Virus record (IMG/VR): IMGVR_UViG_3300045988_087398
Origin: a virus
Length of the DNA stretch: 62,946 nt
Direction: 5' to 3' (one strand)
This document shows, piece by piece, positions 1 to 62,946 of this stretch (position 1 is its first letter; the number at the start of each line of letters is the position of its first letter). Position numbers and translations under genes: made by a program. Under the pieces are notes generated by a model. It did not search any database. It had not been told where the DNA came from and worked only from the letters and a program-made list of their open reading frames with translations.

Positions 1-234
1 GGTAATGCTTGGGTATGTGATAATGCTTGGGTATGTGATAATGCTCGGGTATGTGGAGATGCTAATGTGTGTGGTAATGCTTGGGTATGTGATAATGCTT
101 GGGTGTCTGGTGATGCTCGGGTGTCTGGTGATGCTCGGGTGTCTGGTAATGCTCAGGTGTCTGGTGATGCTCGGGTATGTGGAGATGCTAATGTGTGTGG
201 AGATGCTAATGTGTGTGGTGATGCTCAGGTGGAT
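1..234 (+). repeat. 13 tandem 18-nt units (consensus GGTGATGCTCGGGTGTCT) encoding hexapeptide repeats
   Basis: Direct reading: ggtaatgcttgggtatgt / gataatgcttgggtatgt / ... / ggtgatgctcaggtggat, all in frame 1. Three more units lie at 62892..62945. Confidence 0.9.
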
Positions 235-465
235 AAGAGCATCAATTATGCCGTGATCAAAGGTTTCGGCACTTGTTATAGATCTACGACATTTTTCAGA
301 TGTCAAGACAAAACAGTAAAAGTATCCTGTGGATGTTTTTTAGGAACCATCGACGAATTCAGAAATCAAGTAAAAAACACGCGTGGAGGAAAAATTGCAA
401 AAGAATATTTAATGATTGCTGATCTAATGGAAATACATTTTTCGGAGGATGGATACGATGGTTAA
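1..465 (+). CDS. Hexapeptide-repeat (beta-helix-like) protein; 3' part of the junction-spanning gene that starts at 62748
   Basis: Frame 1 is open from nt 1. Repeats read [GD][ND]A[WRNQ]V[CS], followed by a Cys-containing C-terminal domain. It joins 62748..62946 in frame through the 55-nt overlap. Confidence 0.7.
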   Translation, partial: GNAWVCDNAWVCDNARVCGDANVCGNAWVCDNAWVSGDARVSGDARVSGNAQVSGDARVCGDANVCGDANVCGDAQVDKSINYAVIKGFGTCYRSTTFFRCQDKTVKVSCGCFLGTIDEFRNQVKNTRGGKIAKEYLMIADLMEIHFSEDGYDG

Positions 466-20217: not shown

Positions 20218-21276
20218 ATGGATATGTCAATGAACGGAATCGATATTAGTGCATGGCAGAGAGGGATTAATTTAAGTAATGTCCCATTCGACTTTGCAAT
20301 TGTAAAAGCAACCGAAGGAACGAAGTATATCAATGGCGTATGTGAGAGTCATTGCGATGATGTACTTCGACTCGGTAAATGTCTGGGGATATATCACTAT
20401 GCAAATGGCGGAGATTACAAGCAGGAGGCGGATTTCTTCTTAGAGAAGATAAAGAAGTATGTTGGAAAAGCGCTGCTTGTTCTTGACTGGGAGAGTCAGA
20501 ACAATTCGCAGTTTGGTAAAACGGACCGTGAATGGGTTAAGAACTGGTGCGATTATGTGTATACCCAGACTGGCATTAAGCCAGTTATCTATGTATCCAA
20601 GAGTTTCATGTCTATGTTGGACGGACTTGGATATGAATTCTGGATCGCACAGTATGCGAATAACAAGCCTACGGGTTATCAGGAGAATCCGTGGAATGAG
20701 GGAGTATATACGTGTCTCATCAGACAGTATACATCAACAGGTCGTCTCACAGGTTATCCTGGAGACTTGGATTTGAACAAGTTTTATGGTACAGCAGCGG
20801 ATTGGAATGCACGAGTATCAGTTACTAAACCAGCTCCAGCGCCAGTTCCGGCCGTGTCTCCAACAGGTACAACCATCGAGCTTGTGGTAGCAACATTGCA
20901 GAATAAGTATGGCGTAGGCGATGAGCGTAAGCAGAAGCTGGGAACTCGATATGACGAGGTTCAGAAATTTATTGATTATGTAGCAAATGCTTCGATTGAT
21001 CAGCTGGTAGCAGAAACAAAGGCTGGTGATTATGGTAATGGCGAAACTCGTAAGATTATTCTCGGAGCATTCGATAAGTACGATGCTGTTCAGAATAAGA
21101 TCAATGCCGAGAATACAGCCAAGGCTAGTTCGGCAGCTATTTACGTAGTTAAGAGTGGGGACACGCTCTCTGACATTGCTGCGAAGTACAAAACAACATA
21201 TCAGGCATTACAGAAGCTGAATGGTATTCCGGACCCAAACAAAATTTATCCGGGTCAGAAATTGAAAATTAGATAA
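20218..21276 (+). CDS. Lysin: GH25 muramidase + 2 CW_7-like repeats + LysM
   Basis: [13 protein letters not shown]...FAIVKATEG...DLDLNKFYG (GH25). [12 protein letters not shown] and [12 protein letters not shown] (CW_7-like). [16 protein letters not shown]...YPGQKLKI (LysM). Confidence 0.9.
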
Positions 21277-35045: not shown

Positions 35046-35106
35046 TAAAGACCTTGGAGAGGGTCTATAAACACTACTACTTTATGAAGCGAGGAGTCAA
35101 AACATT

Positions 35107-35487
35107 ATGAAAAAATACATTACAACATTAAGCAAACTGTTTGATATTCGTCGGTTGATTGCCAATAATGGCATCTTAGATCTTGCGTTCTCGCGTAAGG
35201 CAGGACTGTCAGTTGCACGAAATATTAAGAAAATCGACAATGAACTTGCAGAATATGACAAGTCTCGTGATGAGCTGATTCGTAAGTACTCTGACGACGG
35301 AGTCACTATGAACCGTTCAAATCCGAACTGGGACGAGTTCATCAAAGAGTTTAATGAGATCGGTTCAGTCGAAGCGTCGCTGGAAATCAACACGATCACA
35401 GACGATGATCTGCCGGAGAACATTACACCATCGGCATGCCTTGCGATTGAATTCATGATCGAAGATCCAGTAGAAATTGTAGAATAG
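35107..35487 (+). CDS. Hypothetical protein
   Basis: GAGGAG RBS, 126-aa ORF. Confidence 0.5.
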   Translation: MKKYITTLSKLFDIRRLIANNGILDLAFSRKAGLSVARNIKKIDNELAEYDKSRDELIRKYSDDGVTMNRSNPNWDEFIKEFNEIGSVEASLEINTITDDDLPENITPSACLAIEFMIEDPVEIVE

Positions 35488-35500: not shown

Positions 35501-35779
35501 ATGGATATTAAAGATTTTGTTATTATTATACCAATCGTGGTTATTTGTTATCTTATCGGTATGGGGCTTAAAGCATGGAGTTATGTGAATGATGTATGCA
35601 TCCCGGTGTTAGTCGGAGCTATTGGCGGTGTTCTTGGTGTTGTTGCAATGTTTACAATGCCGAGCTTCCCAGCAAATGATGTTCTAACATCCATTGCTAT
35701 TGGTATTATGAGTGGTTTAGCATCCACAGGAAGCAATCAGATTTACAAACAGTTACAGAAGTTTTTCAAAGGGGAGTAG
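35501..35779 (+). CDS. Holin (3 predicted TM helices)
   Basis: 92 aa. TM stretches followed by the ...SGLASTGSNQIYKQLQKFF tail, typical of Gram-positive phage holins. Confidence 0.75.
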   Translation: MDIKDFVIIIPIVVICYLIGMGLKAWSYVNDVCIPVLVGAIGGVLGVVAMFTMPSFPANDVLTSIAIGIMSGLASTGSNQIYKQLQKFFKGE

Positions 35780-35782
35780 TCG

Positions 35783-36085
35783 ATGATCAAATTCACAGTA
35801 TCTTCAGACACGATACTCCTTATTTGCTCGTTGATAGCAGCCTTATGGGGGGTGTATAAAATCGTGAAAGAAGTAAAGAAACCAAGTAAAGATTTACAGG
35901 AGACTGTAGATAAGCATTCAAAACTTCTTGATTCGGACAATGTTCGACTCAAGGAGGTTGAAGAATCCAACAAGATGATTCTACAATGCTTATTAGTAAT
36001 AATCAATCACGATATTACAGGTAACGGAATCGACAATCTCAAAGACACAAGAGATAAGCTACAGCAATATTTGATTGATAAGTAG
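35783..36085 (+). CDS. Membrane-anchored coiled-coil protein (possible lysis accessory)
   Basis: N-terminal TM ILLICSLIAALWGVY followed by a charged helical region. Sits next to the holin. Confidence 0.45.
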   Translation: MIKFTVSSDTILLICSLIAALWGVYKIVKEVKKPSKDLQETVDKHSKLLDSDNVRLKEVEESNKMILQCLLVIINHDITGNGIDNLKDTRDKLQQYLIDK

Positions 36086-36734: not shown

Positions 36735-37985
36735 TTATTGTATTTTTTCTAAGTCTTCTCTAAGCCACTCTACATCTCTTTCGGTGTAAGTGGATTCGGT
36801 TATATCTTGGATATTATGTCCAACCATCTCCTTTAAAGCATATTCGTCTACGTTTGCTTTCTTACATCGAGTGATAAATGTTTTTCTTGGATCGTGAGGT
36901 CTATGCTCAGGATTCAATTTCAATTGCTGTATCACCTTCGTAAAGCGGTTCTTATATTTGTCGTATGTAACAGCATAAGAACCGGCATGTGTTTGTCCTT
37001 TATCATTGAATAGATAAGGGCTTCCTAATTCTATTGCTTTGTCATAATTCATTTTCACAAGCCCTTTTATTTTTGCGTGGATGGGGACGATACGTTGTTT
37101 GCCAGCATTCGTCTTCATTCCGGCTTTCATATACCATTCATCCATATTCACCTCATCAAGACGTAAGGTAGCGAGTTCCTGTGGTCGCCACCCCATATAC
37201 ATCTGAATAATCACCCAATCAGCATATTTTACAACTCCTATATTTTTCCACAATTTATCAATTTCATCTTCGCTGAAAATAATATGTGGTTTCTTAGAGT
37301 TTTCGATATTCTCAACTATGTCGTCAGATAAGTTGAACGTCCGGGCATAATTCTTATCTACAATCTCATATTCTTCAGCGTAATCAAGCAATAGATTGAA
37401 CGTAGATTTAATTCTCGATTTAATCCCTGGGGATGGGTAAATCTTTTTGTCTTTTTCCTTACCTTTTGTTCCTATTCGATATCCTTCCTCGATGCATCCT
37501 TTTATGTGCCGGGCTCTAACGTCTTTTGCTCTCATGTCATATATGGACGAGCAATATGACCACGCTGCTGTAACAGATCGAGTAGCGGACGGCGATATGC
37601 CAGAAAAATATTCTTTGCTCCATTTCATATACAACTCTTTCACTGTTAAATCATTATTCAAGTCATAAGGATTTCGTCTGTACTCCATCAATGCTTCGTA
37701 TGCCTCGTTGTATGTTGGGAAATAGCAAGTTGGCTTTAACTGTTTCAAAATAGGTTTGCCATCTGGTGTCTTTCCAACTGTAACTCTGGCTCTAAAACGA
37801 TTTCTCAATGGTTTGTTTTTAATCTCAGTAATACTTCCAAAGCCATTAGGCAATCGTCGTCGCTTAGTTGTCCTTGGACGAACCTGCGATTGTTTTGAGA
37901 GCGGATAACCACAATGCGGACAAGTTAGTGCTTTATCGCTGACCTGTAATTCACATTCTGGACATTTTGTGAGCATAAGCATCAC
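36735..37985 (-). CDS. int: Tyrosine integrase with N-terminal zinc ribbon and AP2-like arm-binding domain
   Basis: CPECELQVS...CPHCGYPL; LPNGFGSITE...RFRARVTVG...FPTYNEAYEAL; catalytic WRPQEL...HDPRKTF...VGHNI...STYTERD. Confidence 0.9.
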   Translation of the reverse strand: MMLMLTKCPECELQVSDKALTCPHCGYPLSKQSQVRPRTTKRRRLPNGFGSITEIKNKPLRNRFRARVTVGKTPDGKPILKQLKPTCYFPTYNEAYEALMEYRRNPYDLNNDLTVKELYMKWSKEYFSGISPSATRSVTAAWSYCSSIYDMRAKDVRARHIKGCIEEGYRIGTKGKEKDKKIYPSPGIKSRIKSTFNLLLDYAEEYEIVDKNYARTFNLSDDIVENIENSKKPHIIFSEDEIDKLWKNIGVVKYADWVIIQMYMGWRPQELATLRLDEVNMDEWYMKAGMKTNAGKQRIVPIHAKIKGLVKMNYDKAIELGSPYLFNDKGQTHAGSYAVTYDKYKNRFTKVIQQLKLNPEHRPHDPRKTFITRCKKANVDEYALKEMVGHNIQDITESTYTERDVEWLREDLEKIQ

Positions 37986-38830: not shown

Positions 38831-39082
38831 ATGCAAGATATAGTATTTGGTCCCGGTTCAGTTCCGGTAGCAGTAGCTGCTAGAGTATACGGTAAGGATG
38901 CAAACTGGATTAGAGCGGGTATTGTGACTGGATATCTGGACATAGGGACCGCTACTAGGAGGGGTAAAGTAATAACGTCCATAGAACAAATGAATAGTAA
39001 GTACGGACGGATCAATTATTATATATCTCCTAAGAAATTGTATGCTGAAACTGGTTATATTTGGAAAGGAGTAACGCGATGA
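38831..39082 (+). CDS. Putative excisionase-like/DNA-binding protein
   Basis: AAGGAGGTG RBS. The call rests on small size and its position in the integration module; sequence support is weak. Confidence 0.3.
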   Translation: MQDIVFGPGSVPVAVAARVYGKDANWIRAGIVTGYLDIGTATRRGKVITSIEQMNSKYGRINYYISPKKLYAETGYIWKGVTR

Positions 39083-39492
39083 AATCTGAATTATCAAAGA
39101 GAAATCCATATTGGATTGAAAAACACCGGTATTACGAATTACGTCATTTTTGTTTGCAATATCCTATTTGGAAAAGTTCATACAATTCTTTGTATGGTTT
39201 ATCAAAACATATACATATAAGCGATGTTACTAATTCGTCAAAAACAAAAAATATTCCAGATCCAACGGCAACGATTGCAGGAAAAAGGATGTTTTATTCA
39301 GACCGGATGAAGATGATTACGGAAACGGCAAAGAACACAGATGAGTCATTGGCAAAATATCTTGTGTGTGGTGTGACGGAAGGATTATCATACGATACGC
39401 TTCGAGCTCGCCACAATATTCCATGTTGTAGAGATACATATTATGACATGTATCGAAAGTTTTTTTGGCTGCTTAGCAATGTACGAGATTAA
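39079..39492 (+). CDS. Putative sigma-70 region-4-like / RinA-ArpU-type phage transcription activator
   Basis: ATGA coupling to the upstream gene. The C-terminal YLVCGVTEGLSYDTLRARHNIPCCRDTYYDMYRKFFWLL looks like a region-4 HTH. It lies directly upstream of the first element of the cassette array. Confidence 0.4.
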   Translation: MKSELSKRNPYWIEKHRYYELRHFCLQYPIWKSSYNSLYGLSKHIHISDVTNSSKTKNIPDPTATIAGKRMFYSDRMKMITETAKNTDESLAKYLVCGVTEGLSYDTLRARHNIPCCRDTYYDMYRKFFWLLSNVRD

Positions 39493-39514
39493 AATTCTAA
39501 TCTAGATTAGAATT
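39493..39514. promoter_or_regulatory. 22-bp perfect palindrome AATTCTAATCTAGATTAGAATT (operator candidate) abutting element copy 1
   Basis: Read directly from the sequence. A shorter copy, TAATCTAGATTA, lies at 40868..40879. Confidence 0.6.
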
Positions 39515-39540
39515 CGCGTAGAAAACAGATTGTTTTATGG
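39513..39540 (+). promoter_or_regulatory. TTCGCG-N14-TATTATGA element, copy 1
   Basis: ttcgcg tagaaaacagattg ttttatgg. Its first 18 nt are shared with copy 7. Confidence 0.6.
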
Positions 39541-39575
39541 AACTATAATTTATATTTTTAAGGAGGAACAATATT

Positions 39576-39911
39576 ATGGAGATGAAGAGTTTAGGAACTT
39601 GTTATTTGTACGAGGTTACAAAAACAGGAATGACGAAATGCTTCGGAGAGGTTTTTCATCAGGATGCGATTACCAAAGAAGATGGACGCACCATACCTGG
39701 GACGACCGCATTTCGACCTCAGCAGGGAGGATCGGTTATTGTGGCGTCCGAGGAAGGATGCATTCTTGATGGTACGATCTGGTATTATGACGATGAACCG
39801 GAAGAAGCGCTTAAGAAGCTGTATAAAGCAGAACGTGCAAAATTAGCAAGACTCAACAATGATGTCTATCGACAGGAAATGATTGTGCTTAATCTTAAAG
39901 CAAAATTATAG
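39576..39911 (+). CDS. Hypothetical protein (cassette ORF, 111 aa)
   Basis: AAGGAGGAAC RBS. Flanked by element copy 1 and the terminator at 39919. Confidence 0.6.
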   Translation: MEMKSLGTCYLYEVTKTGMTKCFGEVFHQDAITKEDGRTIPGTTAFRPQQGGSVIVASEEGCILDGTIWYYDDEPEEALKKLYKAERAKLARLNNDVYRQEMIVLNLKAKL

Positions 39912-39918
39912 AAGGATC

Positions 39919-39948
39919 GAGCCCCTAACAAGGGCTCTTTCTTTTTTT
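39919..39948 (+). terminator. Terminator of the shared GAGyCC-TAACA-GGrCTC family
   Basis: gagccc-ctaacaa-gggctc hairpin followed by TTTCTTTTTTT. The T-tract runs into element copy 2. Confidence 0.7.
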
Positions 39949-39975
39949 ACGCGAAAATTACATTTCCTATTATGA
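39948..39975 (+). promoter_or_regulatory. TTCGCG-N14-TATTATGA element, copy 2
   Basis: tacgcg aaaattacatttcc tattatga. 32 nt are identical to copy 5. Confidence 0.6.
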
Positions 39976-40016
39976 AAACAAAGACAACATATCATAAAAA
40001 GGAAAGGATGATTATT

Positions 40017-40085
40017 ATGTTAAAACTATTTGTAATAGTAGCATTTATTATTGCAGGAATTTGGTTTGTTGAATGTGTTGATTAA
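40017..40085 (+). CDS. Micro-ORF, 22-aa single-TM peptide (MLKLFVIVAFIIAGIWFVECVD)
   Basis: AAAAGGAAAGG RBS. Bracketed by element copy 2 and the terminator at 40090. Confidence 0.45.
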   Translation: MLKLFVIVAFIIAGIWFVECVD

Positions 40086-40089
40086 GGAG

Positions 40090-40117
40090 GAAGTCCTACA
40101 TGGGCTTCTTTCTTTTG
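40090..40117 (+). terminator. Terminator of the shared hairpin family
   Basis: gaagtcc-tacat-gggcttc hairpin followed by TTTCTTTTGTTTT. Confidence 0.6.
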
Positions 40118-40119
40118 TT

Positions 40120-40147
40120 TTCGCATAAATATCATCCTATTCTATGG
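40120..40147 (+). promoter_or_regulatory. TTCGCG-N14-TATTATGA element, copy 3 (degenerate: TTCGCA...TTCTATGG)
   Basis: ttcgca taaatatcatccta ttctatgg. The spacing is the same. Confidence 0.45.
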
Positions 40148-40159
40148 GAGGTGAGAACA

Positions 40160-40327
40160 GTGAAAAACATACTGACGATTATCATGAGTATAGTATTGGT
40201 TCTTATGCTGGTGATTGATATATTTTTCTATCAAAGACCAGAAGGAAGAATGTTTATGCTTATACTCGCAACAATTGGAGGTGTATGCAGCATCATTATG
40301 TTCGAACAAGACGAAGCAGAGTCCTAA
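40160..40327 (+). CDS. Small membrane protein (55 aa, 2 TM) ending ...EAES
   Basis: GTG start after GGGAGG. The stop TAA lies in the loop of the terminator hairpin. Confidence 0.55.
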   Translation: MKNILTIIMSIVLVLMLVIDIFFYQRPEGRMFMLILATIGGVCSIIMFEQDEAES

Positions 40328-40344
40328 CATGGACTCTTCTTTTT
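40318..40344 (+). terminator. Shared-family terminator with the stop codon in the loop
   Basis: agagtcc-TAAcat-ggactct hairpin followed by TCTTTTT. Confidence 0.75.
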
Positions 40345-40370
40345 CGCGAAAATTACAAGGTGTATTATGA
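40343..40370 (+). promoter_or_regulatory. TTCGCG-N14-TATTATGA element, copy 4
   Basis: ttcgcg aaaattacaaggtg tattatga. Confidence 0.6.
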
Positions 40371-40446
40371 GAGAATAGACACTCGAAAGGGCAGTGAAGT
40401 TTGAGGATCCAAGCATCATTGGAAACTAATCGGGAAGGAGATAATA

Positions 40447-40599
40447 GTGAAAACTATGCACGAGGCTAGATCGAAAGATGAACTATATCGAAAGATATAC
40501 CATGAGCCTGAGGGAAATATCGGCGTCCTTCGAGTGGAATTGATGTATTCTTTTCTTTTTCGCGAAAATTACATTTCCTATTATGAAAACAATTCATAA
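40447..40599 (+). CDS. Possible 50-aa ORF (cassette without its own terminator; reads through element copy 5)
   Basis: GTG after GGGAAGGAG. The frame was checked codon by codon. This may be a decayed cassette. Confidence 0.25.
   Translation: MKTMHEARSKDELYRKIYHEPEGNIGVLRVELMYSFLFRENYISYYENNS
40559..40586 (+). promoter_or_regulatory. TTCGCG-N14-TATTATGA element, copy 5
   Basis: ttcgcg aaaattacatttcc tattatga. Confidence 0.6.
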
Positions 40600-40614
40600 A
40601 AAGGAGTGATTTAT

Positions 40615-40842
40615 ATGATGAATTTATATAATTATTTAGCAGTTATGATTACAGAGCGTATGACTGGATTGGATCATACTTGTCTCAAGATTTGGGATTT
40701 TTATACATATGTGTATACATTATCTACAGTTGAGAAAGCTATGAACATTACAATCATAGGTTTGGTATTAATTACTGTATGCGTTATAGCAATTATCGTA
40801 TTAAACAAATTTGAGAAGAAATTGAAGAGTGAGGAAGCCTAA
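40615..40842 (+). CDS. Small membrane protein (75 aa, C-terminal TM) ending ...SEEA
   Basis: AAAAGGAG RBS. The stop TAA lies in the terminator loop. Confidence 0.6.
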   Translation: MMNLYNYLAVMITERMTGLDHTCLKIWDFYTYVYTLSTVEKAMNITIIGLVLITVCVIAIIVLNKFEKKLKSEEA

Positions 40843-40862
40843 CATGGGCTTCTTCTCTTTTT
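40831..40862 (+). terminator. Shared-family terminator with the stop codon in the loop
   Basis: gaggaagcc-TAAcatg-ggcttcttc hairpin followed by TCTTTTT. Confidence 0.75.
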
Positions 40863-40867
40863 ATTTT

Positions 40868-40879
40868 TAATCTAGATTA
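40868..40879. promoter_or_regulatory. Palindrome TAATCTAGATTA (second copy of the 39493 operator core)
   Basis: Read directly. Followed by the AT-rich gaattttatattttacaac. Confidence 0.5.
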
Positions 40880-40987
40880 GAATTTTATATTTTACAACAC
40901 AGACAAACCCATAATAAATGATATTTTGATATTGGAAAAATTCCCGGGTGGGGTTTTCATAAAAACAAAATGGAAGGAGGAAAACAA

Positions 40988-41194
40988 ATGGTTGCATTAG
41001 CGATTACTTTGGTGATTACCAACATTCTTTGGCTTTTATATTTTCAGTGGTGGCGGAAGAAGAAAACATTGGGATCTATCATTATTACGGACGAAGACTC
41101 TTTGTACGTAGAATTGGAAGATCACGAGTCTATGGATAAGATTCATAAGAGTAAAGATGTTATTTTTTCAGTGCATATGGAATCGCGTAAATAA
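40988..41194 (+). CDS. Small membrane protein (68 aa, N-terminal TM)
   Basis: GGAAGGAGG RBS. MVALAITLVITNILWLLYFQWW... Confidence 0.6.
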   Translation: MVALAITLVITNILWLLYFQWWRKKKTLGSIIITDEDSLYVELEDHESMDKIHKSKDVIFSVHMESRK

Positions 41195-41234
41195 CGTGGG
41201 CTATTATGAATAAAATTTAAGGAGGTATAAAGCA

Positions 41235-41591
41235 ATGGACAAAATTAAGGAAGCATTGTGGAATGACTACGAGGAGAAGAAGGGATTATTGAATGACATG
41301 GAACCAGGCTCAGACGAGTATAAGGTTGTTGCATCAGAAGTCGATAATATCCGGAAAGAGCTTATTGATGTCAATAAGACTGTAGCTGAGAACGAATTTA
41401 AGGTTACTCAGGCGGCAGACGATTCGAAGAAAGAGAAGACTCGGAACCGGATTTCTATCGGAACTTTTATTACATCAACCGCATTATCGTTGTATGCCAT
41501 TGGAAAGACATTCAAATTTGATTCGTCATCGACAGTCACATCCACATTGGGTCGGAATATTTTGAATGCGTTTATTCCAAAGAAGAGATAA
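41235..41591 (+). CDS. Hypothetical protein (coiled coil plus C-terminal hydrophobic segment)
   Basis: AAGGAGG RBS, 118 aa. Confidence 0.6.
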   Translation: MDKIKEALWNDYEEKKGLLNDMEPGSDEYKVVASEVDNIRKELIDVNKTVAENEFKVTQAADDSKKEKTRNRISIGTFITSTALSLYAIGKTFKFDSSSTVTSTLGRNILNAFIPKKR

Positions 41592-41604
41592 TTATTCAAA
41601 ACGG

Positions 41605-41635
41605 GACGCTGAGGAAACTTGGCGTCTTAGTTTTT
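41605..41635 (+). terminator. Rho-independent terminator
   Basis: gacgc-tgaggaaacttg-gcgtc hairpin followed by TTAGTTTTT, running into element copy 6. Confidence 0.6.
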
Positions 41636-41661
41636 CGCGAAATAAACATCGACTATTATGA
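41634..41661 (+). promoter_or_regulatory. TTCGCG-N14-TATTATGA element, copy 6
   Basis: ttcgcg aaataaacatcgac tattatga. Confidence 0.6.
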
Positions 41662-41734
41662 AAGGATGATATATAATTATTTATATTATTGTCCTTATCT
41701 TAACGGAAAGGGCTTGCTTTAAGGAGGCAGGTAA

Positions 41735-41890
41735 ATGGAAGATAACATGAAAGAATTTGTTGCATTCAGTAGAAAATTACTGAGAAGTTTGAAAGAACTT
41801 CGTGAACTTCTGGCTAAGGACGATAAGGAATTAGCTTTGAAGAAACTCGATGAGTTGATTGACGATACTCAGAAGGATATTGAAGCATAA
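41735..41890 (+). CDS. Small helical protein (51 aa; below ORF-track cutoff)
   Basis: AAGGAGG RBS. MEDNMKEFVAFSRKLLRSLKELRELLAKDDKELALKKLDELIDDTQKDIEA. A terminator follows. Confidence 0.5.
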   Translation: MEDNMKEFVAFSRKLLRSLKELRELLAKDDKELALKKLDELIDDTQKDIEA

Positions 41891-41908
41891 TATCGAGTTA
41901 TCAGAAAT

Positions 41909-41946
41909 GGCCTGTGGTTGAAAAATCGCAGGCTCTTTCTTTTTTA
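41909..41946 (+). terminator. Rho-independent terminator
   Basis: ggcctg...caggct stem followed by CTTTCTTTTTT. Confidence 0.55.
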
Positions 41947-41957
41947 TATATTTTATT

Positions 41958-42317
41958 ATGAGATATCATTACGAAAAACCAAAATTATACAATTCAATAT
42001 ATGGACAGATATACGAATGTAATCACCCAGTCTATAGCAGGTGCACATTATATTTGATAGGTAATAAGGGCTTAGCTGTGATTCAGCAGCGATATAACCC
42101 GGAGAATAAAACAACTTGGTGGACCGAAATAGACCCGTGGTTGAATAATACTTTATATTTGCATCCGGGATTTAAGAAGTTTTTCGATGAGAGAGCTGGA
42201 GAGCCAGTCGAAGAATTGTATCCGACCGTCTCTGTACGGCAAATTATGTGGGCTTTGAAGATGAAACCAATAAAGCGAGAACGATGGGAAACATGTTTTG
42301 ATCGGCGATATATTTGA
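41958..42317 (+). CDS. Hypothetical protein (119 aa)
   Basis: ORF; the ATG lies within ttttattATGa. No upstream TTCGCG box or obvious RBS was seen. Confidence 0.5.
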   Translation: MRYHYEKPKLYNSIYGQIYECNHPVYSRCTLYLIGNKGLAVIQQRYNPENKTTWWTEIDPWLNNTLYLHPGFKKFFDERAGEPVEELYPTVSVRQIMWALKMKPIKRERWETCFDRRYI

Positions 42318-42318
42318 A

Positions 42319-42346
42319 TTCGCGTAGAAAACACACAGTTTTATGG
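42319..42346 (+). promoter_or_regulatory. TTCGCG-N14-TATTATGA element, copy 7
   Basis: ttcgcg tagaaaacacacag ttttatgg. The leader ttttatggaggtgatatttatg is identical to that of copy A. Confidence 0.6.
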
Positions 42347-42357
42347 AGGTGATATTT

Positions 42358-42693
42358 ATGGCAATAACAGAAATTTTAAGTAAGTATTCTAAGAGATTTG
42401 ATGATTCTTGTATTTCTTGGGCAAGAGATCCAGAATTGAACATTTATTTCCTAAAGTACATACAAGATTATGCCAATGATTTACTACAGCGTAGCGGATA
42501 TCTATTTCTAAATAGAGTATTTGAATTATTAGGAATAGCACCAACTAAAGCTGGACAAATCGTTGGATGGATTTATGCTCCAGGAAAAATGATCGATTTT
42601 GGAATTTCAAAAGAAGACGGAACATCAAACTATATGCTTAATTTTAATGTTGATGGCGAAATATTAGACAAAACTGATATGGAAGATTATTAG
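42358..42693 (+). CDS. Stand-alone paralog of the C-terminal domain of 47484..48416
   Basis: DPELNIYFLKYIQDYANDLLQRSGYLFLNRVFELLGIAPTKAGQIVGWIY...NFNVDGEILD compared with DPELNLMFLRKQQDFLNDRLKAEGYLFLNDVYDALGIQKTKIGQIAGWVY...DFNCDGDILD. Confidence 0.65.
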   Translation: MAITEILSKYSKRFDDSCISWARDPELNIYFLKYIQDYANDLLQRSGYLFLNRVFELLGIAPTKAGQIVGWIYAPGKMIDFGISKEDGTSNYMLNFNVDGEILDKTDMEDY

Positions 42694-42700
42694 GAATGCT

Positions 42701-42736
42701 AAGGCTCAGTGTAGAAATACATTGGGTCTTTTCTTT
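42701..42736 (+). terminator. Rho-independent terminator (28 nt identical to 2903..2930)
   Basis: aaggctcagtg-tagaaata-cattgggtctt hairpin followed by TTCTTTTT. Confidence 0.7.
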
Positions 42737-42764
42737 TTCGCGTAAAAAACATATCCCTTTATGA
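42737..42764 (+). promoter_or_regulatory. TTCGCG-N14-TATTATGA element, copy 8
   Basis: ttcgcg taaaaaacatatcc ctttatga. Confidence 0.55.
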
Positions 42765-42799
42765 AAATAAACTACATTACATAAACGGAGGTATGTGTT

Positions 42800-42982
42800 A
42801 TGAATATTAAGAAAAAAGAAGCAAAGAAGATGATTAAATTGTTGGACGATAAGGCAAGATATGCATTGCAAAATATGATGTTTGCAATTGAGCATAAACT
42901 GCCTATTGAATCGCAGTTTAGAGGAGAGGCTAAAGCTTATTTAGACTTAAGAGACGAATTAATGCGAGGTTTGAAGAAGTAG
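42800..42982 (+). CDS. Small helical protein (60 aa)
   Basis: ACGGAGG RBS. Flanked by element copy 8 and the terminator at 42990. Confidence 0.55.
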   Translation: MNIKKKEAKKMIKLLDDKARYALQNMMFAIEHKLPIESQFRGEAKAYLDLRDELMRGLKK

Positions 42983-42989
42983 TTATTTG

Positions 42990-43025
42990 GGAGTAGATTT
43001 GACAGAGTCTATTCCTTTTCTTTTT
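42990..43025 (+). terminator. Rho-independent terminator
   Basis: ggagtaga-tttgacagag-tctattcc hairpin followed by TTTTCTTTTT. Confidence 0.6.
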
Positions 43026-43051
43026 CGCGAAAATTACATACTGTATTATGA
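43024..43051 (+). promoter_or_regulatory. TTCGCG-N14-TATTATGA element, copy 9
   Basis: ttcgcg aaaattacatactg tattatga. Confidence 0.6.
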
Positions 43052-43080
43052 GGAAATCAAAGAAAGGAAGGTATATTTAT

Positions 43081-43257
43081 ATGATACTTACAACATTATT
43101 AATTATTGCAGCTTTAATAACAATAGTGGTTTTAGCATTTGCGGTATTAGCCGGGGGTGCAGGATTCTTATTGGTGTTTGGAGATGTAATTGTATTTGTA
43201 TTGGTGGTTGTAGGAATTATTAAATCCTTAACCAAGAAAAAGAAATCCAAGAAATAG
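43081..43257 (+). CDS. Small membrane protein (58 aa, 2 TM, Lys-rich tail)
   Basis: AAAGGAAGG RBS. MILTTLLIIAALITIVVLAFAVLAGGAGFLLVFGDVIVFVLVVVGII... Confidence 0.6.
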   Translation: MILTTLLIIAALITIVVLAFAVLAGGAGFLLVFGDVIVFVLVVVGIIKSLTKKKKSKK

Positions 43258-43282
43258 GAGAGCTACGGCTCTCTTATTTTTT
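43258..43282 (+). terminator. Terminator GAGAGC-tacg-GCTCTC
   Basis: Perfect 6-bp stem with a tetraloop, directly after the stop TAG, followed by TTATTTTTT. Confidence 0.7.
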
Positions 43283-43308
43283 CGCGAAAAATACTTTCAC
43301 TATTATGA
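43281..43308 (+). promoter_or_regulatory. TTCGCG-N14-TATTATGA element, copy 10
   Basis: ttcgcg aaaaatactttcac tattatga. Confidence 0.6.
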
Positions 43309-43347
43309 CAATAATAACAGTTTTCATAAATGAAAGGAGAAAACATT

Positions 43348-43557
43348 ATGATTAAAGCATTGAAAGAGTACAAGGACGAGGTATTGAAACCAGAAATAGC
43401 ATGGTTAAAAAGACACTGGATTGGGTTTTTAGTGTATTTGGTAATATGCTTTATTACGGGGTTTGTATCAACGATGGTACGTAATATCAAAGAAAAGAAG
43501 AAACATAATGAAGACGATTATTATGAAGATCGTTATGGCAAAGAGGAGGAGTCCTAA
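43348..43557 (+). CDS. Small membrane protein (69 aa, 1 TM) ending ...KEEES
   Basis: AAAGGAGA RBS. The stop TAA lies in the terminator loop. Confidence 0.6.
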   Translation: MIKALKEYKDEVLKPEIAWLKRHWIGFLVYLVICFITGFVSTMVRNIKEKKKHNEDDYYEDRYGKEEES

Positions 43558-43574
43558 TGGACTCTTCTTTTTAT
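43546..43574 (+). terminator. Shared-family terminator with the stop codon in the loop
   Basis: gaggagtcc-TAAt-ggactcttc hairpin followed by TTTTTATTT. Confidence 0.75.
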
Positions 43575-43602
43575 TTCGCGTCGTTTACATTTCCTATTAT
43601 GA
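43575..43602 (+). promoter_or_regulatory. TTCGCG-N14-TATTATGA element, copy 11
   Basis: ttcgcg tcgtttacatttcc tattatga. Confidence 0.6.
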
Positions 43603-43628
43603 AAACATATAGGAAAGGAGACAAAATA

Positions 43629-43700
43629 ATGAATGCAGTTATAGCAATATTGGCTGGCGCATTAATTTATGCGATCCTGAACAAGGTGGATAAGAAATAG
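43629..43700 (+). CDS. Micro-ORF, 23-aa single-TM peptide (MNAVIAILAGALIYAILNKVDKK)
   Basis: AGGAAAGGAGA RBS. Bracketed by element copy 11 and the terminator at 43701. Confidence 0.45.
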   Translation: MNAVIAILAGALIYAILNKVDKK

Positions 43701-43725
43701 GAGGGCTACGGCTCTCTTATTTTTA
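43701..43725 (+). terminator. Terminator GAGGGC-tacg-GCTCTC (near-copy of 43258)
   Basis: Stem-loop directly after the stop TAG, followed by TTATTTTT. Confidence 0.65.
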
Positions 43726-43744
43726 TAAGAAAGGAGATGATCTA

Positions 43745-44524
43745 TTGATCAATGCAAAATTATTTCTCAAAAGACACTCTTCAACAATTTTAGCATGTCT
43801 TGGATGTGCAGGGGTTATAGTGACTTCTGTAACGGCTGTACGAGCAACCCCAAAGGCTATTAAACTATTAGAAGAAGCCGAAGAAAACAAAGGATCTGAA
43901 TTAACAACATGGGAAAAAGCCAAGACAACGACGAAAGCATATTTACCGTCGATATTGTTTGGTGTTTCAACCATTGCGTGTATTGCCGGTTCTTCGATTC
44001 TTTCATATAACACCCAGAAATCTATGGCAAGTGCATACGCTTTGATAAATCAATCGTATCGAGATTATCGTAGAAAAGCAAAAGATATTTACGGTGAAGA
44101 TGCAGATAGAAAGATTCTCGATGCAATCATTGCTGAAAAAGCGGAGACTATGTACATAGAAGCTCCTGGTATTTGTGATTGCGCGACCTTATATATCGAC
44201 GAGAATCACGGAGAGAAACGATTGTTCTATGACGAATATGGCAAGCGATTCTTTGAATCAACGTTGGAACAAGTTATATCAGCGGAGTACCATACGAACC
44301 GTAATTTTGTATTACGTGGATCACAGATGCTAAATGAATTCTATGGGTTCTTGGGCTTGGAACCTACTGATTTTGGCTGGGAAGCTGGATGGTGTGTCAT
44401 AGATGAGCTTTATTGGATTGATTTTGATCATAGAGAAATTGAAATCGATGGTAAGAAATGTATTGTCATCCAGATGCCGTGGGAACCACGAATAGGGTAT
44501 GACGATGATAATTGCTATTATTGA
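43745..44524 (+). CDS. Two-TM-hairpin protein family, paralog A (259 aa)
   Basis: TTG start after AAAGGAGA. KRHSSTILACLGCAGVIVTSVTAVRATPKAIKLLEEAEE...second TM...ASAYAL..SYRDYRRK aligns with 45091 and 47484. Confidence 0.65.
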   Translation: MINAKLFLKRHSSTILACLGCAGVIVTSVTAVRATPKAIKLLEEAEENKGSELTTWEKAKTTTKAYLPSILFGVSTIACIAGSSILSYNTQKSMASAYALINQSYRDYRRKAKDIYGEDADRKILDAIIAEKAETMYIEAPGICDCATLYIDENHGEKRLFYDEYGKRFFESTLEQVISAEYHTNRNFVLRGSQMLNEFYGFLGLEPTDFGWEAGWCVIDELYWIDFDHREIEIDGKKCIVIQMPWEPRIGYDDDNCYY

Positions 44525-44552
44525 TTCGCGAAAAAACCATTTGCTATTATGA
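44525..44552 (+). promoter_or_regulatory. TTCGCG-N14-TATTATGA element, copy 12
   Basis: ttcgcg aaaaaaccatttgc tattatga. It starts one nt after the stop of 43745..44524. Confidence 0.6.
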
Positions 44553-44577
44553 AAAAATACAAAAGGAGGGTCTTAAT

Positions 44578-44742
44578 ATGAATAAGGCAGATTTGAAGTT
44601 TTTGAGAAAGGCAGGATTTAACATTGCTTTCGGAGTCATCGTAGGTAAAGAATTAGGCGAGTTCGTTACGCAGGTGGCTTATCGATTTGCAATTAAGATG
44701 ATGGACAAGAAAATGCCAGAATCAAACAAGACTGAAGAGTAA
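44578..44742 (+). CDS. Small protein (54 aa, one hydrophobic segment)
   Basis: AAAAGGAGGG RBS. Confidence 0.55.
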   Translation: MNKADLKFLRKAGFNIAFGVIVGKELGEFVTQVAYRFAIKMMDKKMPESNKTEE

Positions 44743-44751
44743 TTTTCAAAT

Positions 44752-44788
44752 AGAGGATTCAATGGAAACATTGGGTCTTCTATTTTTT
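44752..44788 (+). terminator. Rho-independent terminator
   Basis: agaggattcaatg-gaaa-cattgggtcttct hairpin followed by ATTTTTT. Confidence 0.65.
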
Positions 44789-44831
44789 CAGCACGGAAAT
44801 ACCAGTAATCAATGATATTTTGATAGTAACA

Positions 44832-44859
44832 TTCGCACGAAAAACATCGGCTATTATGG
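44832..44859 (+). promoter_or_regulatory. TTCGCG-N14-TATTATGA element, copy 13 (TTCGCA...TATTATGG)
   Basis: ttcgca cgaaaaacatcggc tattatgg. Preceded by AATGATATTTTGATA (44811..44825), which also occurs at 40919..40933. Confidence 0.55.
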
Positions 44860-44877
44860 AAAGGAGGTAAGCCATCT

Positions 44878-45051
44878 ATGAAAGAAAAGTTTAATTCAAC
44901 GACAGTTTTGAGCGCCGTTGTGACTGCGATGGGAGTGATTGGAACATTACTTTCATTTAAGGTTCAGAACGATGATCGGGAACTGTTGAAGGAAGAATTA
45001 AAGGAAGAGCTTAGAGAAGAGCTTAGCAACGAAGATAAAGAGGAGTCCTAA
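44878..45051 (+). CDS. Small membrane protein (57 aa, 1 TM, EEL-repeat tail) ending ...KEES
   Basis: AAAGGAGG RBS. The stop TAA lies in the terminator loop. Below the ORF-track cutoff. Confidence 0.55.
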   Translation: MKEKFNSTTVLSAVVTAMGVIGTLLSFKVQNDDRELLKEELKEELREELSNEDKEES

Positions 45052-45070
45052 CACGGGCTCTTCTTTTATA
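45040..45070 (+). terminator. Shared-family terminator with the stop codon in the loop
   Basis: gagtcc-TAAcac-gggctc hairpin followed by TTCTTTTAT. Confidence 0.65.
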
Positions 45071-45090
45071 TTTGATAGGAGGAATCAAAC

Positions 45091-45885
45091 ATGAGTAAAG
45101 AATCATTTGCGAGATTTGTGAAAAGCACAAAAAGAGGTCTCGTAAAACACAGTCCGGAAATCTTAACCGGATTAGGAATCGCAGGAATGATATCATCTGT
45201 CGTTCTTGCGGCAAAAGCAACGCCCAAGGCGCTTCAGTTGATTGAAGAAGCGAAGGATAAGGCAGACACAGACAAGCTTACAGTACCAGAAACAATCAAG
45301 GCAGCATGGAAGCCATATATTCCAGTCGTACTTACATGCAGTGCATCTGTAGCTTGTATTATTGGTGCAAATACAGTAAATGCACGACGCAATGCTGCTC
45401 TTGCTACGGCATATGAACTCTCAAGAAATGCTCTGACTGAGTATAAGGAGCGTGTGGTAGAGGAGATTGGCAAGGAAAAAGAGCAGAAGATACAGGAAAA
45501 GGTTGCTCAGAAAAAGATCAACGAAACACCAAACGCATCTAATGTAATAATTGCAGGTGCAAACAAGGTGTGGTTTCTTGAGCCTGTATCTGGACGATAT
45601 TTCCAGGCAAATGTAGAAGACGTAAGACGAGTAATCAATGATTTGAATTATCGCCTTACTGGTGGAATGGAAGAGTATGTATCGCTCAGTGAATTCTATG
45701 ATGAAATCGTGGCTATTGGTGGAGATCTTCCTCACACATGCACCAGCGACGATCTTGGATGGAACCTCAATCGAGATGGGCAAATTGAAATCGATATGCC
45801 AGCAGGCAAAATGTCAAATGGCGAACCATGTCTCGTATTGGACTATCATGTAGCACCGCGGTACGATTATTCAAAATTATCGTAA
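45091..45885 (+). CDS. Two-TM-hairpin protein family, paralog B (264 aa)
   Basis: VKHSPEILTGLGIAGMISSVVLAAKATPKALQLIEEAKD...ATAYELSRNALTEYKERV. Confidence 0.65.
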   Translation: MSKESFARFVKSTKRGLVKHSPEILTGLGIAGMISSVVLAAKATPKALQLIEEAKDKADTDKLTVPETIKAAWKPYIPVVLTCSASVACIIGANTVNARRNAALATAYELSRNALTEYKERVVEEIGKEKEQKIQEKVAQKKINETPNASNVIIAGANKVWFLEPVSGRYFQANVEDVRRVINDLNYRLTGGMEEYVSLSEFYDEIVAIGGDLPHTCTSDDLGWNLNRDGQIEIDMPAGKMSNGEPCLVLDYHVAPRYDYSKLS

Positions 45886-45913
45886 TTCGCGAAAAATACA
45901 AGCACTATTATGA
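45886..45913 (+). promoter_or_regulatory. TTCGCG-N14-TATTATGA element, copy 14
   Basis: ttcgcg aaaaatacaagcac tattatga. It starts directly after the stop of 45091..45885. Confidence 0.6.
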
Positions 45914-45948
45914 CAGAGTAAAAAATTATATTTAAGGAGGACAAAACT

Positions 45949-46254
45949 ATGTCAAGAAACAATGTTAAGAATGAGGAAGTAAAGGATGTCGAGGTTGTCG
46001 ACGAGAAGGATGTTGAAGTTGTAGACAACAACGCAACTGATGAAAACTCAAAGGCTGATGCCAAGGAGGAATCAAAGGTTAAGAAGATCTTAAATAAGAT
46101 CAAGAAACCGGTTTCCTACATTGGTGCGGCAGTTGGCGGATTCGCAGTAGCGATGTTGATCTCAGCAGCAAGACAGGACGAAGATGATCAGGATGGACTG
46201 TACTACCTTGAAGGAGACAAAGAGGATGACAGTAGCAAAACAACTGAAGAGTAA
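45949..46254 (+). CDS. Acidic protein with one TM segment (101 aa)
   Basis: AAGGAGG RBS. EEVKDVEVVDEKDVEVVDNN... then VSYIGAAVGGFAVAMLISAA. Confidence 0.6.
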   Translation: MSRNNVKNEEVKDVEVVDEKDVEVVDNNATDENSKADAKEESKVKKILNKIKKPVSYIGAAVGGFAVAMLISAARQDEDDQDGLYYLEGDKEDDSSKTTEE

Positions 46255-46266
46255 TTTCTATCGGTC

Positions 46267-46309
46267 GAAAGGGTGATGCCTATACAAGGCATTTCCCTTT
46301 TTTCTTTTT
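46267..46309 (+). terminator. Rho-independent terminator
   Basis: gaaagggtgatgcct-ataca-aggcatttcccttt interrupted stem followed by a T-run. Confidence 0.65.
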
Positions 46310-62747: not shown

Positions 62748-62946
62748 ATGAAAAAATATGAATTAACAAATGAAACAATCGAATATAAAGGAAAAAAATT
62801 ATATAGAATTAAGGCTCTAATTGATTTTGGAAATGTAGAAAAAGGAGCTCGTGGTGGGTTCGTTGAAAAAGAGGAAAATCTTAGTATGTCTGGTAATGCT
62901 TGGGTATGTGATAATGCTTGGGTATGTGATAATGCTCGGGTATGTG
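62748..62946 (+). CDS. 5' part of the hexapeptide-repeat protein gene (continues at nt 56 of the window across the circular junction)
   Basis: AAAGGAGA RBS. MKKYELTNETIEYKGKKLYRIKAL...GNAWVCDNAWVCDNARVC, in frame with 1..465. Confidence 0.7.
   Translation, partial: MKKYELTNETIEYKGKKLYRIKALIDFGNVEKGARGGFVEKEENLSMSGNAWVCDNAWVCDNARVC

Follow-up and report, generated by a model that had tools for sequence, protein, structure and literature searches.

Why should a phage genome carry a run of very small open reading frames (ORFs), nearly every one of which is bracketed by its own apparent signals for the start and the end of transcription? We examined this question at positions 39948–46254 of IMG/VR virus record IMGVR_UViG_3300045988_087398, a 62.9-kb phage genome in which nearly all genes are on the + strand (the entire analysed stretch, 62,946 nucleotides in length, is hereafter called the window). 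A preliminary description of this region had proposed that at least ten micro-ORFs encode mostly single-pass membrane peptides, and that each possesses a ribosome-binding site together with its own promoter-like element and terminator. The explanation that best accounts for our findings, to which we assign a probability of about 0.6, is that the region is an array of cassettes headed by a motif that would be read by a phage-encoded polymerase, and that these cassettes specify a mixture of backbone and accessory membrane peptides.

All ten of the proposed ORFs are present (beginning at positions 40017, 40160, 40615, 40988, 43081, 43348, 43629, 44578, 44878 and 45949, and encoding 22, 55, 75, 68, 58, 69, 23, 54, 57 and 101 amino acids [aa], respectively), and each is preceded by a Shine-Dalgarno (SD) sequence, i.e., a match of at least 5 nt to AAAGGAGGTGAT situated 3–12 nt upstream of the start codon. 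The expectation that they contain one or two hydrophobic helices holds for nine, each of which includes a 19-residue window with a Kyte-Doolittle mean of at least 1.6 (with two such segments in 40160 and 43081), but fails for 44578, which is not hydrophobic. On an approximate Hessa-type scale, seven ORFs fall below 0 kcal/mol and two are borderline (44878 at +0.5 and 45949 at +0.9); at +7.9, the segment in 44578 is not a membrane helix, soluble controls scoring +14 to +16. A transmembrane (TM) segment occurs in 9 of the 16 small SD-preceded ORFs of the array versus 7 of 38 elsewhere in the window (Fisher p = 0.009). We also delimited 96 non-redundant related arrays between two anchor genes and clustered their SD-preceded ORFs: across this family, TM segments are found in 445 of 1065 small SD-preceded ORFs within arrays (42%) as against 203 of 755 in the flanks (27%; p = 5e-11). 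Among uncalled ORFs of 20–110 aa, the share with a TM segment is 8% on the + strand and 15% on the − strand; within the array region, none of 35 uncalled ORFs has one.

Related phages had been named in the preliminary description as the place where disrupted frames, or a ratio of non-synonymous to synonymous substitution rates (dN/dS) of about 1, would speak against these ORFs; what we find is that the frames are intact in close relatives and that the ratio of non-synonymous to synonymous changes per site (pN/pS) is well below 1. All ten frames are preserved in two relatives with 93–98% nucleotide identity (L002 and L003), and the pooled differences from these relatives consist of 21 synonymous and 10 non-synonymous changes, yielding a pN/pS of 0.12 (binomial p = 1.6e-8 against the neutral site ratio) in a comparison for which neighbouring larger genes give 0.05. 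Such comparisons demonstrate that the ten micro-ORFs are translated-type genes under purifying selection. Among individual ORFs, 43348 shows six synonymous and 0–1 non-synonymous changes relative to L002 and L003, the 23-aa ORF at 43629 has undergone an in-frame insertion of 6 nt in both of these relatives, and the 22-aa ORF at 40017 is intact in L001–L003, with one non-synonymous change in L003; the soluble ORF at 42800 has six synonymous and no non-synonymous changes relative to L002.

Within the 96 arrays, homologs of 40988 are present in 93 (98% of its members with a TM segment), those of 44878 in 77, those of 43081 in 25 (every member with a TM segment) and those of 43348 in 20. Searches with jackhmmer place the 45949 family in about 30 of the 96 arrays and the family of 43629 in 15; members of the latter (e.g., MAGLIAILAGLLIYTVLKYIEK and MSDVLIAIVGGIFIYLLLNRGK) are all 21–25 aa long, having diverged in sequence and retained length and pattern. 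For 40615, a single distant homolog was detected among the arrays (in L010, at 35% identity). The pN/pS values of families, 0.25–0.67 versus about 0.25 for soluble controls, are inflated because synonymous sites are near saturation.

The further claim that standard annotation would miss several of these genes is correct for part of the set. In the public gene calls for five prophage contigs, 40017 and 43081 are uncalled, and 40160 and 43629 are mis-extended, their N-termini running through the terminator and motif (for 40160, from an upstream ATG), whereas the remaining six appear in the calls. A collection of 15 billion proteins contains neither the 22-aa sequence of 40017 nor the 23-aa one of 43629. 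The exact 44878 protein is encoded on 803 contigs of up to 568 kb in length, which indicates that the prophage is common; the exact 44578 protein is on 525 contigs (among the arrays, in close relatives only), the exact 40988 protein on 458, and a variant of the 40615 protein on 448. The 40160 ORF is in only 3 IMG/VR contigs.

What marks these genes as a set is the sequence that precedes them, a motif of approximately 30 nt with the consensus tttTTCGCGaAAAwwACAnnnnCTATTATGRRA. Its core (TTCGCG-N7-CA-N6-WTTATG) has 19 matches at two or fewer mismatches in the window, where 1.0 would be expected, and 18 of them are on the + strand and 15 within 39513–45912. Nine of the ten ORFs begin 13–60 nt downstream of a copy, and after nine of them a stable hairpin with a T run comes within 55 nt (z of −1.7 to −5.8), with 19 terminator-like sites found versus 4.7 expected. 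As such, the proposal that every ORF has a ribosome-binding site, a promoter-like element and a terminator holds in full for the first of these and in nine of ten cases for each of the others; 40988 has neither motif nor terminator. The view of the micro-ORFs as individually insulated genes, most of them for membrane peptides, is supported. Across the family, motif copies number 732 (+) and 4 (−) in arrays and 49 (+) and 10 (−) in flanks, the median distance from a motif to the next SD-preceded start is 34 nt, and 86% of the ORFs that follow a motif are no longer than 110 aa.

Three additional motif copies occur outside the array (at 2678, 5658 and 57834), all on the + strand and each with a small ORF downstream; a long inverted repeat (AGAGGAAAGTGTGATATTCTGTATTTCACAACATTTCCTCT) comes after the one at 5658. 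The terminators at 40318–40337, 40831–40855, 43549–43564 and 45037–45066 constitute a sequence family, GAGKCCTAACAYGGRCTC followed by a T run, and because the 5′ arms of these terminators overlap the last codons, unrelated ORFs end in the same way (…EES* or …EEA*). In place of the motif, 40988 is preceded (at 40856–40987) by a conserved non-coding element of about 75–110 nt (…TATWTTGATATTTGAAAAATTCCCGGGTGGGAWTTT..GAAAAAC…) that occurs in most of the 96 arrays and is recognisable in Arthrobacter phage Argan (L372, about 1889–2030); this element could be a second promoter class, an operator or an origin. A structured RNA was considered and rejected for it, as RNAalifold returned no consensus pairs, and an Rfam scan of the whole window gave no matches. 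An exact 15-mer, AATGATATTTTGATA, lies about 60–70 nt upstream of both 40988 and 44878 (at 40917–40931 and 44811–44825); it has four matches in the window at two or fewer mismatches, where one is expected, and across the family precedes 38 of 92 homologs of 40988 versus 1 of 76 of 44878.

The promoter-like element of the preliminary description is borne out as a recurrent motif but not as a promoter of the sigma-70 type. Canonical sigma-70 matches are not enriched in the window (42 found versus 39 expected), and the motif holds conserved blocks where the spacer of a sigma-A promoter would be: 14 bp separate TTCGCG (at about −32 to −27) from the TATTAT hexamer downstream of it, and an ACA block at −20 to −18 also falls in the spacer. 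In about 17% of motif copies, no more than 10 nt separate the hexamer from the start of the SD, which is so close that a transcript starting 6–8 nt downstream would lose it; in contrast, a start at the conserved G/purine run (motif positions 26–29), the probable site of initiation, would keep the SD in every case, giving each cassette an SD-containing leader. The possibility that the conserved ATG of the motif is a general start codon was rejected, since only 3 of 12 copies are in frame without a stop, which is about chance.

The motif is not confined to the close relatives of this phage. A supercluster has been defined that unites Faecalibacterium phage FP_oengus, Lactococcus phage 1706 and actinophage clusters AM, AU, AW, DJ, CC, EL and BI (preprint 10.1101/842583), and the window contains its core genes, i.e., a putative RNA polymerase flanked by helix-turn-helix (HTH) domains, a primase-polymerase, TerL, and a protease fused to the capsid protein. 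We found six motif copies in FP_oengus ((G/A)ACGCGAAAAAwwCAnnnTGCTTTATG), eleven in phage 1706 (TTcACAtGTTTTACAnnnnCTATAGTAGAAAG, all on the + strand) and seven in phage Argan (TTCGCAnAAAwwACAyGGnCTATAATGAGA), and in all three phages, each of which also has a putative phage RNA polymerase, the copies come after T runs and upstream of small ORFs. In addition to the motif and the small membrane ORFs in the same region, the window shares with the Oengus/1706 supercluster the 991-aa putative RNA polymerase, the primase-polymerase, the DUF6353 paralogs, p118, p119 and p206; the lineage of the window differs in infecting Lachnospiraceae and in having more cassettes (15 motif copies in its array) than the supercluster members inspected. 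The papers searched, including the one on Cluster EL Microbacterium phages, yielded no account of the motif or of the cassette organisation, and a literature search for promoters of phage 1706 was unproductive.

For a motif kept across phages of two phyla, the simplest explanation is a shared reader that is encoded by the phages themselves. The reader that we first favoured was A143, the product of a gene directly upstream of the array. Its model is good (a predicted local distance difference test [pLDDT] score of 85) and has no fold match in PDB; the BFVD fold matches are weak and non-significant (E of 0.03–2), and are to sigma-70 region 4, an extracytoplasmic function (ECF) sigma factor, DUF1492 and activator proteins. 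A143 co-occurs with the motif in Oengus, but its homologs are limited to four phage records, all from gut members of the supercluster, and this candidate was rejected because phages 1706 and Argan carry the motif and have no A143 homolog.

The motif is probably read, to judge from these distributions, by the 991-aa putative polymerase of the phage itself, an RNA-dependent RNA polymerase (RdRP)/YonO-like protein, and not by host sigma-A. Along its entire length, this protein matches phrog_4291 (‘RNA-dependent RNA polymerase’; E = 0), and it contains RYPH at residue 483 and DFDGD at residue 530, and the corresponding RxPH and SGADFDGD are invariant in 25 homologs from phages of Firmicutes and Actinobacteria. 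For the polymerase of the supercluster, a 95.7% HHpred match to the Pfam RdRP family (PF05183) and the catalytic motif have been reported (preprint 10.1101/842583). Homologs occur in 250 phage records (Arthrobacter 95, Gordonia 55, Streptomyces 54, Lactococcus 13, Faecalibacterium 2, and others). DUF6353 proteins, usually two or three per genome, occur in 251 records of almost equal host make-up, which suggests a functional link between the two. The 991-aa protein also resembles YonO of the Bacillus prophage SPbeta in being phage-encoded, in its size (about 100 kDa) and in having RxPH…DxDGD at a similar spacing, although YonO does not possess the terminal HTH domains. YonO is a single-chain two-barrel RNA polymerase of the sigma-independent type that transcribes a defined set of phage genes and whose promoter that study did not determine (Forrest et al. 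2017, PMC5467207).

The stretch from 39.5 to 46.3 kb is the plastic, non-structural part of the genome, and the array proves to be a mixture: self-contained units, each with a motif, an SD and one small ORF between two terminators, are interspersed in a conserved backbone. Its backbone, to which 40988, 44878 and 45949 belong, follows the order A143, variable cassettes, c0 (40988), p118, variable cassettes, p119, variable cassettes, DUF6353, c2 (44878), DUF6353, an acidic-TM gene (45949-like), c1, p206, p104 and DUF6353, with c2 nearly always between two DUF6353 genes and two acidic-TM families analogous to 45949 (c5 and c7) occupying the same backbone position. The 43081, 43348 and 43629 ORFs are recurrent cassettes, and families of this kind (e.g., 43348) are found at differing positions relative to the backbone; 40017, 40160, 40615 and 44578 are lineage-specific. 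Of 231 peptide clusters, 136 are singletons, and the length of the array between its fixed anchor genes ranges from 2.4 to 9.8 kb.

Comparison of near-identical prophages demonstrates that entire cassettes come, go or give way to others, and that the junctions fall inside motif or terminator sequence common to both versions. The segment at 40371–40547 is absent from L003 and replaced in L002, and the junctions lie inside the two flanking motif copies. The DUF6353 fragment at 42358 is replaced in L002 and L003 by an unrelated 70-aa ORF, the exchange extending exactly from the shared motif, SD and ATG to the shared terminator. Both relatives also carry, between the 43629 ORF and the DUF6353 paralog DUFa, an extra unit (motif, SD, 67-aa TM ORF and terminator) that is flanked by two near-identical terminators. 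Five metagenomic prophage contigs add two combinations, bringing the three cassette polymorphisms to four haplotypes among near-identical prophages.

This organisation recalls two known systems. Morons of lambdoid and other temperate phages, reportedly described in 2000 by Juhala and by Hendrix and their colleagues, are likewise extra genes situated between genes that are adjacent in relatives, with their own promoter-like element and intrinsic terminator and often encoding membrane or exclusion proteins; the 67-aa TM cassette and the 40447 cassette, each present or absent among relatives, have this property. Morons, however, are individually distinct, have host-type promoters and are expressed from the prophage, whereas here as many as 16 units have one phage-family motif and some are backbone genes. 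The closer parallel is to the promoter-early stem-loop (PeSL) cassettes of the hyperplastic regions of T4-type phages (Arbiol et al. 2010, PMC2839356; Comeau et al. 2014, PMC4122927), in which a composite terminator-plus-promoter repeat likewise flanks small, mostly ORFan genes between conserved blocks, and in which the junctions of indels and replacements between close relatives fall in the repeats. In the sequence of most cassettes of the window, the hairpin and its T run pass straight into the TTCGCG motif in just this manner, and small ORFan genes are clustered between conserved genes, but the strong sigma-70-like early promoter of PeSL cassettes is not found: the promoter part is not sigma-70-like and is conserved across phages of two phyla, which suggests a phage polymerase. 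The carriers also differ, being virulent T4-like myoviruses for PeSL cassettes and a temperate siphovirus of Gram-positive anaerobes here. For PeSL cassettes, promoter and terminator activity and the formation of mini-circles have been demonstrated (PMC2839356, PMC4122927); the cassettes considered here are defined by sequence.

As to what the peptides do, the micro-ORFs have no significant match to a family of known function in Pfam, NCBIfam, PHROG or PADLOC (PADLOC returned two weak, partial matches, for p118 and 45949, in compositionally biased regions). The peptides would enter the host membrane. Because the backbone peptides are encoded at fixed places next to the DUF6353 genes, we infer that they probably act together with the membrane-anchored DUF6353 proteins. 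The model of one of these proteins (DUFb; pLDDT 72) consists of a long helical hairpin and an alpha/beta domain and has no significant PDB fold match; sequence searches of PDB produced no match to DUF6353, and a literature search found no papers. The variable peptides would be dispensable factors for interaction with the host, active for example in exclusion or envelope modulation. Several small phage membrane proteins act in exclusion, among them T4 Imm and Sp, HK97 gp15 and lactococcal Sie2009. These resemble the peptides of the window in being small, in having one or two TM helices and in being encoded outside structural and replication modules, but have no sequence similarity to them. A host-envelope role (exclusion, or modulation of uptake or entry) is plausible for the variable cassettes.

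Comparable peptides exist in the distant relatives. In Argan, the corresponding region has several annotated small membrane proteins (gp37, 38, 45, 49 and 52). The record of phage 1706 (L371, NC_010576) contains three unannotated TM micro-ORFs, at 24784–24849 (21 aa), 25198–25299 (33 aa) and 35035–35133 (32 aa), each after an SD-like site; the 33-aa ORF is just downstream of the motif copy at 25153 and the 21-aa ORF downstream of the copy at 24720, and in both cases a T run lies between the ORF and the motif copy that comes next. The 33-aa peptide (MGTLIKVLFHLIMTGITGGLWLLGLIIWFIIKK) has a homolog in Argan, the 32-aa gp49, and the 21-aa micro-ORF is a look-alike of the 23-aa peptide of 43629.

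Several other explanations need to be considered. If the micro-ORFs were untranslated chance openings in repetitive regulatory DNA, a notion that draws on the 22- and 23-aa ORFs being shorter than gene callers usually accept and offering few informative substitutions individually, they would hardly show so strong a pooled deficit of non-synonymous changes, a strong SD on all ten, TM segments that none of the uncalled ORFs of the region possesses, or a 21–25-aa family with a retained length and pattern and an in-frame indel; we regard this as extremely improbable. It is unlikely, though less so by far, that the motif is a host sigma-A promoter on which a phage activator (e.g., A143) acts at TTCGCG, much as T4 MotA does at −30, or the operator of a prophage repressor, with the cassettes being ordinary early genes or morons that the host enzyme transcribes. 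The motif has a −10-like hexamer (TATTAT or TATAAT), its 5′ block (tttTTCGCGAAAa) is roughly palindromic, as would suit a dimeric HTH protein, and A143 has the favourable location, resemblances and co-occurrence in Oengus noted above. Yet there is no −35 element at a spacing of 16–18 bp from the TATTAT hexamer, a start at the usual distance past the hexamer would cost about 17% of the copies their SD, the fold matches of A143 are not significant, and phages 1706 and Argan manage without a homolog; moreover, the hosts of the phages that have kept the motif include Actinobacteria and three families of Firmicutes, whose sigma-A promoters and regulators differ. Reading by the phage polymerase has its own difficulties. 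No homology between the 991-aa protein and YonO is detectable (BLASTP E = 0.84; hhalign probability 0.4%), a profile search of PDB matches only its HTH domains, and its putative assignment as a polymerase comes from its PHROG label, from a short motif and from a preprint. That the motif acts as a promoter, that this polymerase reads it and that the peptides enter the membrane are conclusions that we infer, TM segments were called from hydropathy scales and not by a trained predictor, and no homology ties any peptide to a known function, including those of exclusion, holin and defence families. Also weighing against the reading as a whole, 40988 does not have the cassette layout, relaxed constraint would also fit the pN/pS values of the families, and individual support is thin for 40017, 40160 and 44578, which are confined to close relatives and have few substitutions.

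The remaining alternatives concern the peptides. They might be subunits of a conserved membrane machine of the phage that includes the three DUF6353 paralogs, p118 and p206 and serves, for example, to anchor replication or transcription, the variable cassettes being interchangeable versions. This fits the fixed places that c0, c2 and the acidic-TM gene occupy, in most of the 96 arrays, next to p118 and the DUF6353 genes, the same backbone in Oengus and the small membrane proteins in the equivalent region of Argan, the nearly identical host make-up of the phage sets with DUF6353 and with the polymerase, and the placement of the block directly upstream of the primase-polymerase gene. We nevertheless consider it doubtful, in that most cassette peptides are lineage-specific or singletons, cassettes come and go among near-identical prophages with no compensating change, and the DUF6353 model, having no informative fold match, points to no machine that can be named. 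Far less probable is that the peptides are lysis-timing proteins (holins or antiholins) or membrane poisons akin to type I toxins, which they resemble in size and in their one- or two-TM topology: the PHROG holin matches of 40160 and 44878 (E of 0.03–0.07) are not significant, a bona fide holin gene is located elsewhere, the array contains no lysin gene, and no antisense promoter or RNA element was found, Rfam being empty and the motif essentially absent from the minus strand. Returning to the cassette array with a phage-polymerase motif, an extended form of this reading is that the ~30-nt motif (TTCGCR-N4-wwACA-N4-CTATWRTG-purines) is the promoter of the HTH-flanked polymerase throughout the supercluster and, fused to terminators, also a recombination substrate for swapping genes for tiny membrane proteins, some of 21–25 codons; this we hold only tentatively, at somewhat less than even odds.

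Features of the array and of the surrounding phage genome (SD, Shine-Dalgarno sequence; TM, transmembrane segment; positions are those of the window)
Feature	Position	Strand	Composition and remarks
Putative two-barrel (RdRP/YonO-like) RNA polymerase, 991 aa	6617–9592	+	HTH domains at both ends; phrog_4291
TerL	11984		
Prohead protease fusion	15528		protease fused to capsid; supercluster core gene
GH25-CW_7-LysM lysin	20218–21276		inside structural block, just upstream of tape-measure gene
Holin	35501–35779		phrog_1129, E = 2.5e-18; after tail genes, ~4 kb upstream of array
Tyrosine integrase	36735–37985	−	
A143, 137-aa all-helical protein	39079–39492	+	phrog_11237; just upstream of array; possible transcription factor
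Cassette	39948–40114	+	motif 39948–39974 (1 mismatch), SD, 22-aa TM ORF 40017–40085, terminator 40084–40114
Cassette	40120–40337	+	motif 40120–40146 (2 mismatches), SD, 55-aa two-TM ORF 40160–40327 (GTG start), terminator 40318–40337
Variable cassette	40343–40599	+	motif 40343–40369, soluble 50-aa ORF 40447–40599; runs into next motif, without terminator
Cassette	40559–40855	+	motif 40559–40585, SD, 75-aa TM ORF 40615–40842, terminator 40831–40855
Backbone gene c0	40856–41194	+	conserved non-coding element 40856–40987, 68-aa ORF 40988–41194 with N-terminal TM; without TTCGCG motif, without terminator
Backbone gene p118	41182–41628	+	motif 41182–41208 (2 mismatches, overlaps c0 stop codon), 118-aa ORF 41235–41591, terminator 41603–41628
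Cassette	41634–41934	+	motif 41634–41660, soluble 51-aa ORF 41735–41890, terminator 41909–41934
Backbone gene p119, 119 aa	41958–42317	+	phrog_17256; without SD; ATG in degenerate copy of the motif's 3′ half
Swappable cassette	42319–42730	+	motif 42319–42345, SD, 111-aa DUF6353 C-terminal fragment 42358–42693 (PF19880, E = 9e-21), terminator 42701–42730
Cassette	42737–43016	+	motif 42737–42763, soluble 60-aa ORF 42800–42982, terminator 42989–43016
Cassette	43024–43273	+	motif 43024–43050, SD, 58-aa two-TM ORF 43081–43257 with Lys-rich tail, terminator 43258–43273
Cassette	43281–43564	+	motif 43281–43307, SD, 69-aa TM ORF 43348–43557, terminator 43549–43564
Cassette	43575–43725	+	motif 43575–43601, SD, 23-aa TM ORF 43629–43700, terminator about 43701–43725
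Backbone gene DUFa, DUF6353 paralog, 259 aa	43745–44524	+	TTG start; PF19880, E = 1e-60
Cassette	44525–44790	+	motif 44525–44551, SD, 54-aa non-hydrophobic ORF 44578–44742, hairpin and T run about 44750–44789
Backbone gene c2	44832–45066	+	motif 44832–44858 (1 mismatch), SD, 57-aa TM ORF 44878–45051, terminator 45037–45066
Backbone gene DUFb, DUF6353 paralog, 264 aa	45091–45885	+	PF19880, E = 3e-72
Backbone cassette	45886–46293	+	motif 45886–45912, SD, 101-aa ORF 45949–46254 (acidic N-terminus, TM, acidic C-terminus), terminator 46275–46293
Primase-polymerase, 1396 aa	49899		phrog_4210, E = 0

By its gene content, the window is an Oengus/1706-like temperate siphovirus of Lachnospiraceae. Its prophage relatives are found in Eubacterium ramulus, Lachnospira hominis, Hungatella hathewayi, Blautia glucerasea, [Ruminococcus] torques, Roseburia hominis and other Clostridia, and its closest cultured relative is FP_oengus, which has the same gene order. 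Oengus is a prophage with a tyrosine integrase and was present in up to 40% of the virome samples analysed by Cornuault et al. (2018, PMC5883640). Two of the larger backbone genes are widespread: p118, which has a hydrophobic C-terminal tail and matches phrog_15866, gave tblastn matches in 132 of 159 loci examined, and homologs of p119, a gene that is uncalled in public assemblies, are on more than 590 IMG/VR contigs. The ATG of p119 is 6–7 nt downstream of TATATT and directly after the T run of a terminator, so with no SD its mRNA may be leaderless; the Oengus homolog, gp09, also has no SD. The lysin and holin genes are 14 kb apart (20218–21276 versus 35501–36085). The G+C fraction is 0.33–0.36 over the 40–44 kb interval versus about 0.38–0.41 for most of the genome, a comparison made at the level of the region. 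An 18-bp tandem repeat (TTGGGTATGTGATAATGC-like, at least 14 copies) spans both ends of the window (1–249 and 62864–62946), which indicates that the window is a circular or permuted genome cut inside a repeat-containing ORF; this ORF (67–465) would encode a hexapeptide repeat.

Small membrane proteins of phages and the shuffling of promoter–terminator cassettes are each known already. What is new is their combination in a temperate gut siphovirus with a motif that crosses phyla and is tied to an RdRP-like polymerase, and with conserved peptides of only 21–25 aa. Conserved micro-proteins of 21–33 residues are missed or mis-started by annotation, even in the RefSeq record of phage 1706. The motif supplies a concrete and testable promoter candidate for a poorly understood class of single-chain phage RNA polymerases, and cultured systems in which to test it are at hand in Lactococcus phage 1706, Faecalibacterium phage Oengus and many of the SEA-PHAGES actinophages. 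If the pairing of polymerase and promoter is true, the cassette would be usable as a compact orthogonal expression unit, and the motif would be the first promoter consensus for this polymerase class and its cassettes an instance of PeSL-like gene shuffling outside the T4 group. Cassette shuffling, so far described for T4-type phages, is shown to act as well on temperate phages that are abundant and whose hosts are Clostridia of the human gut.

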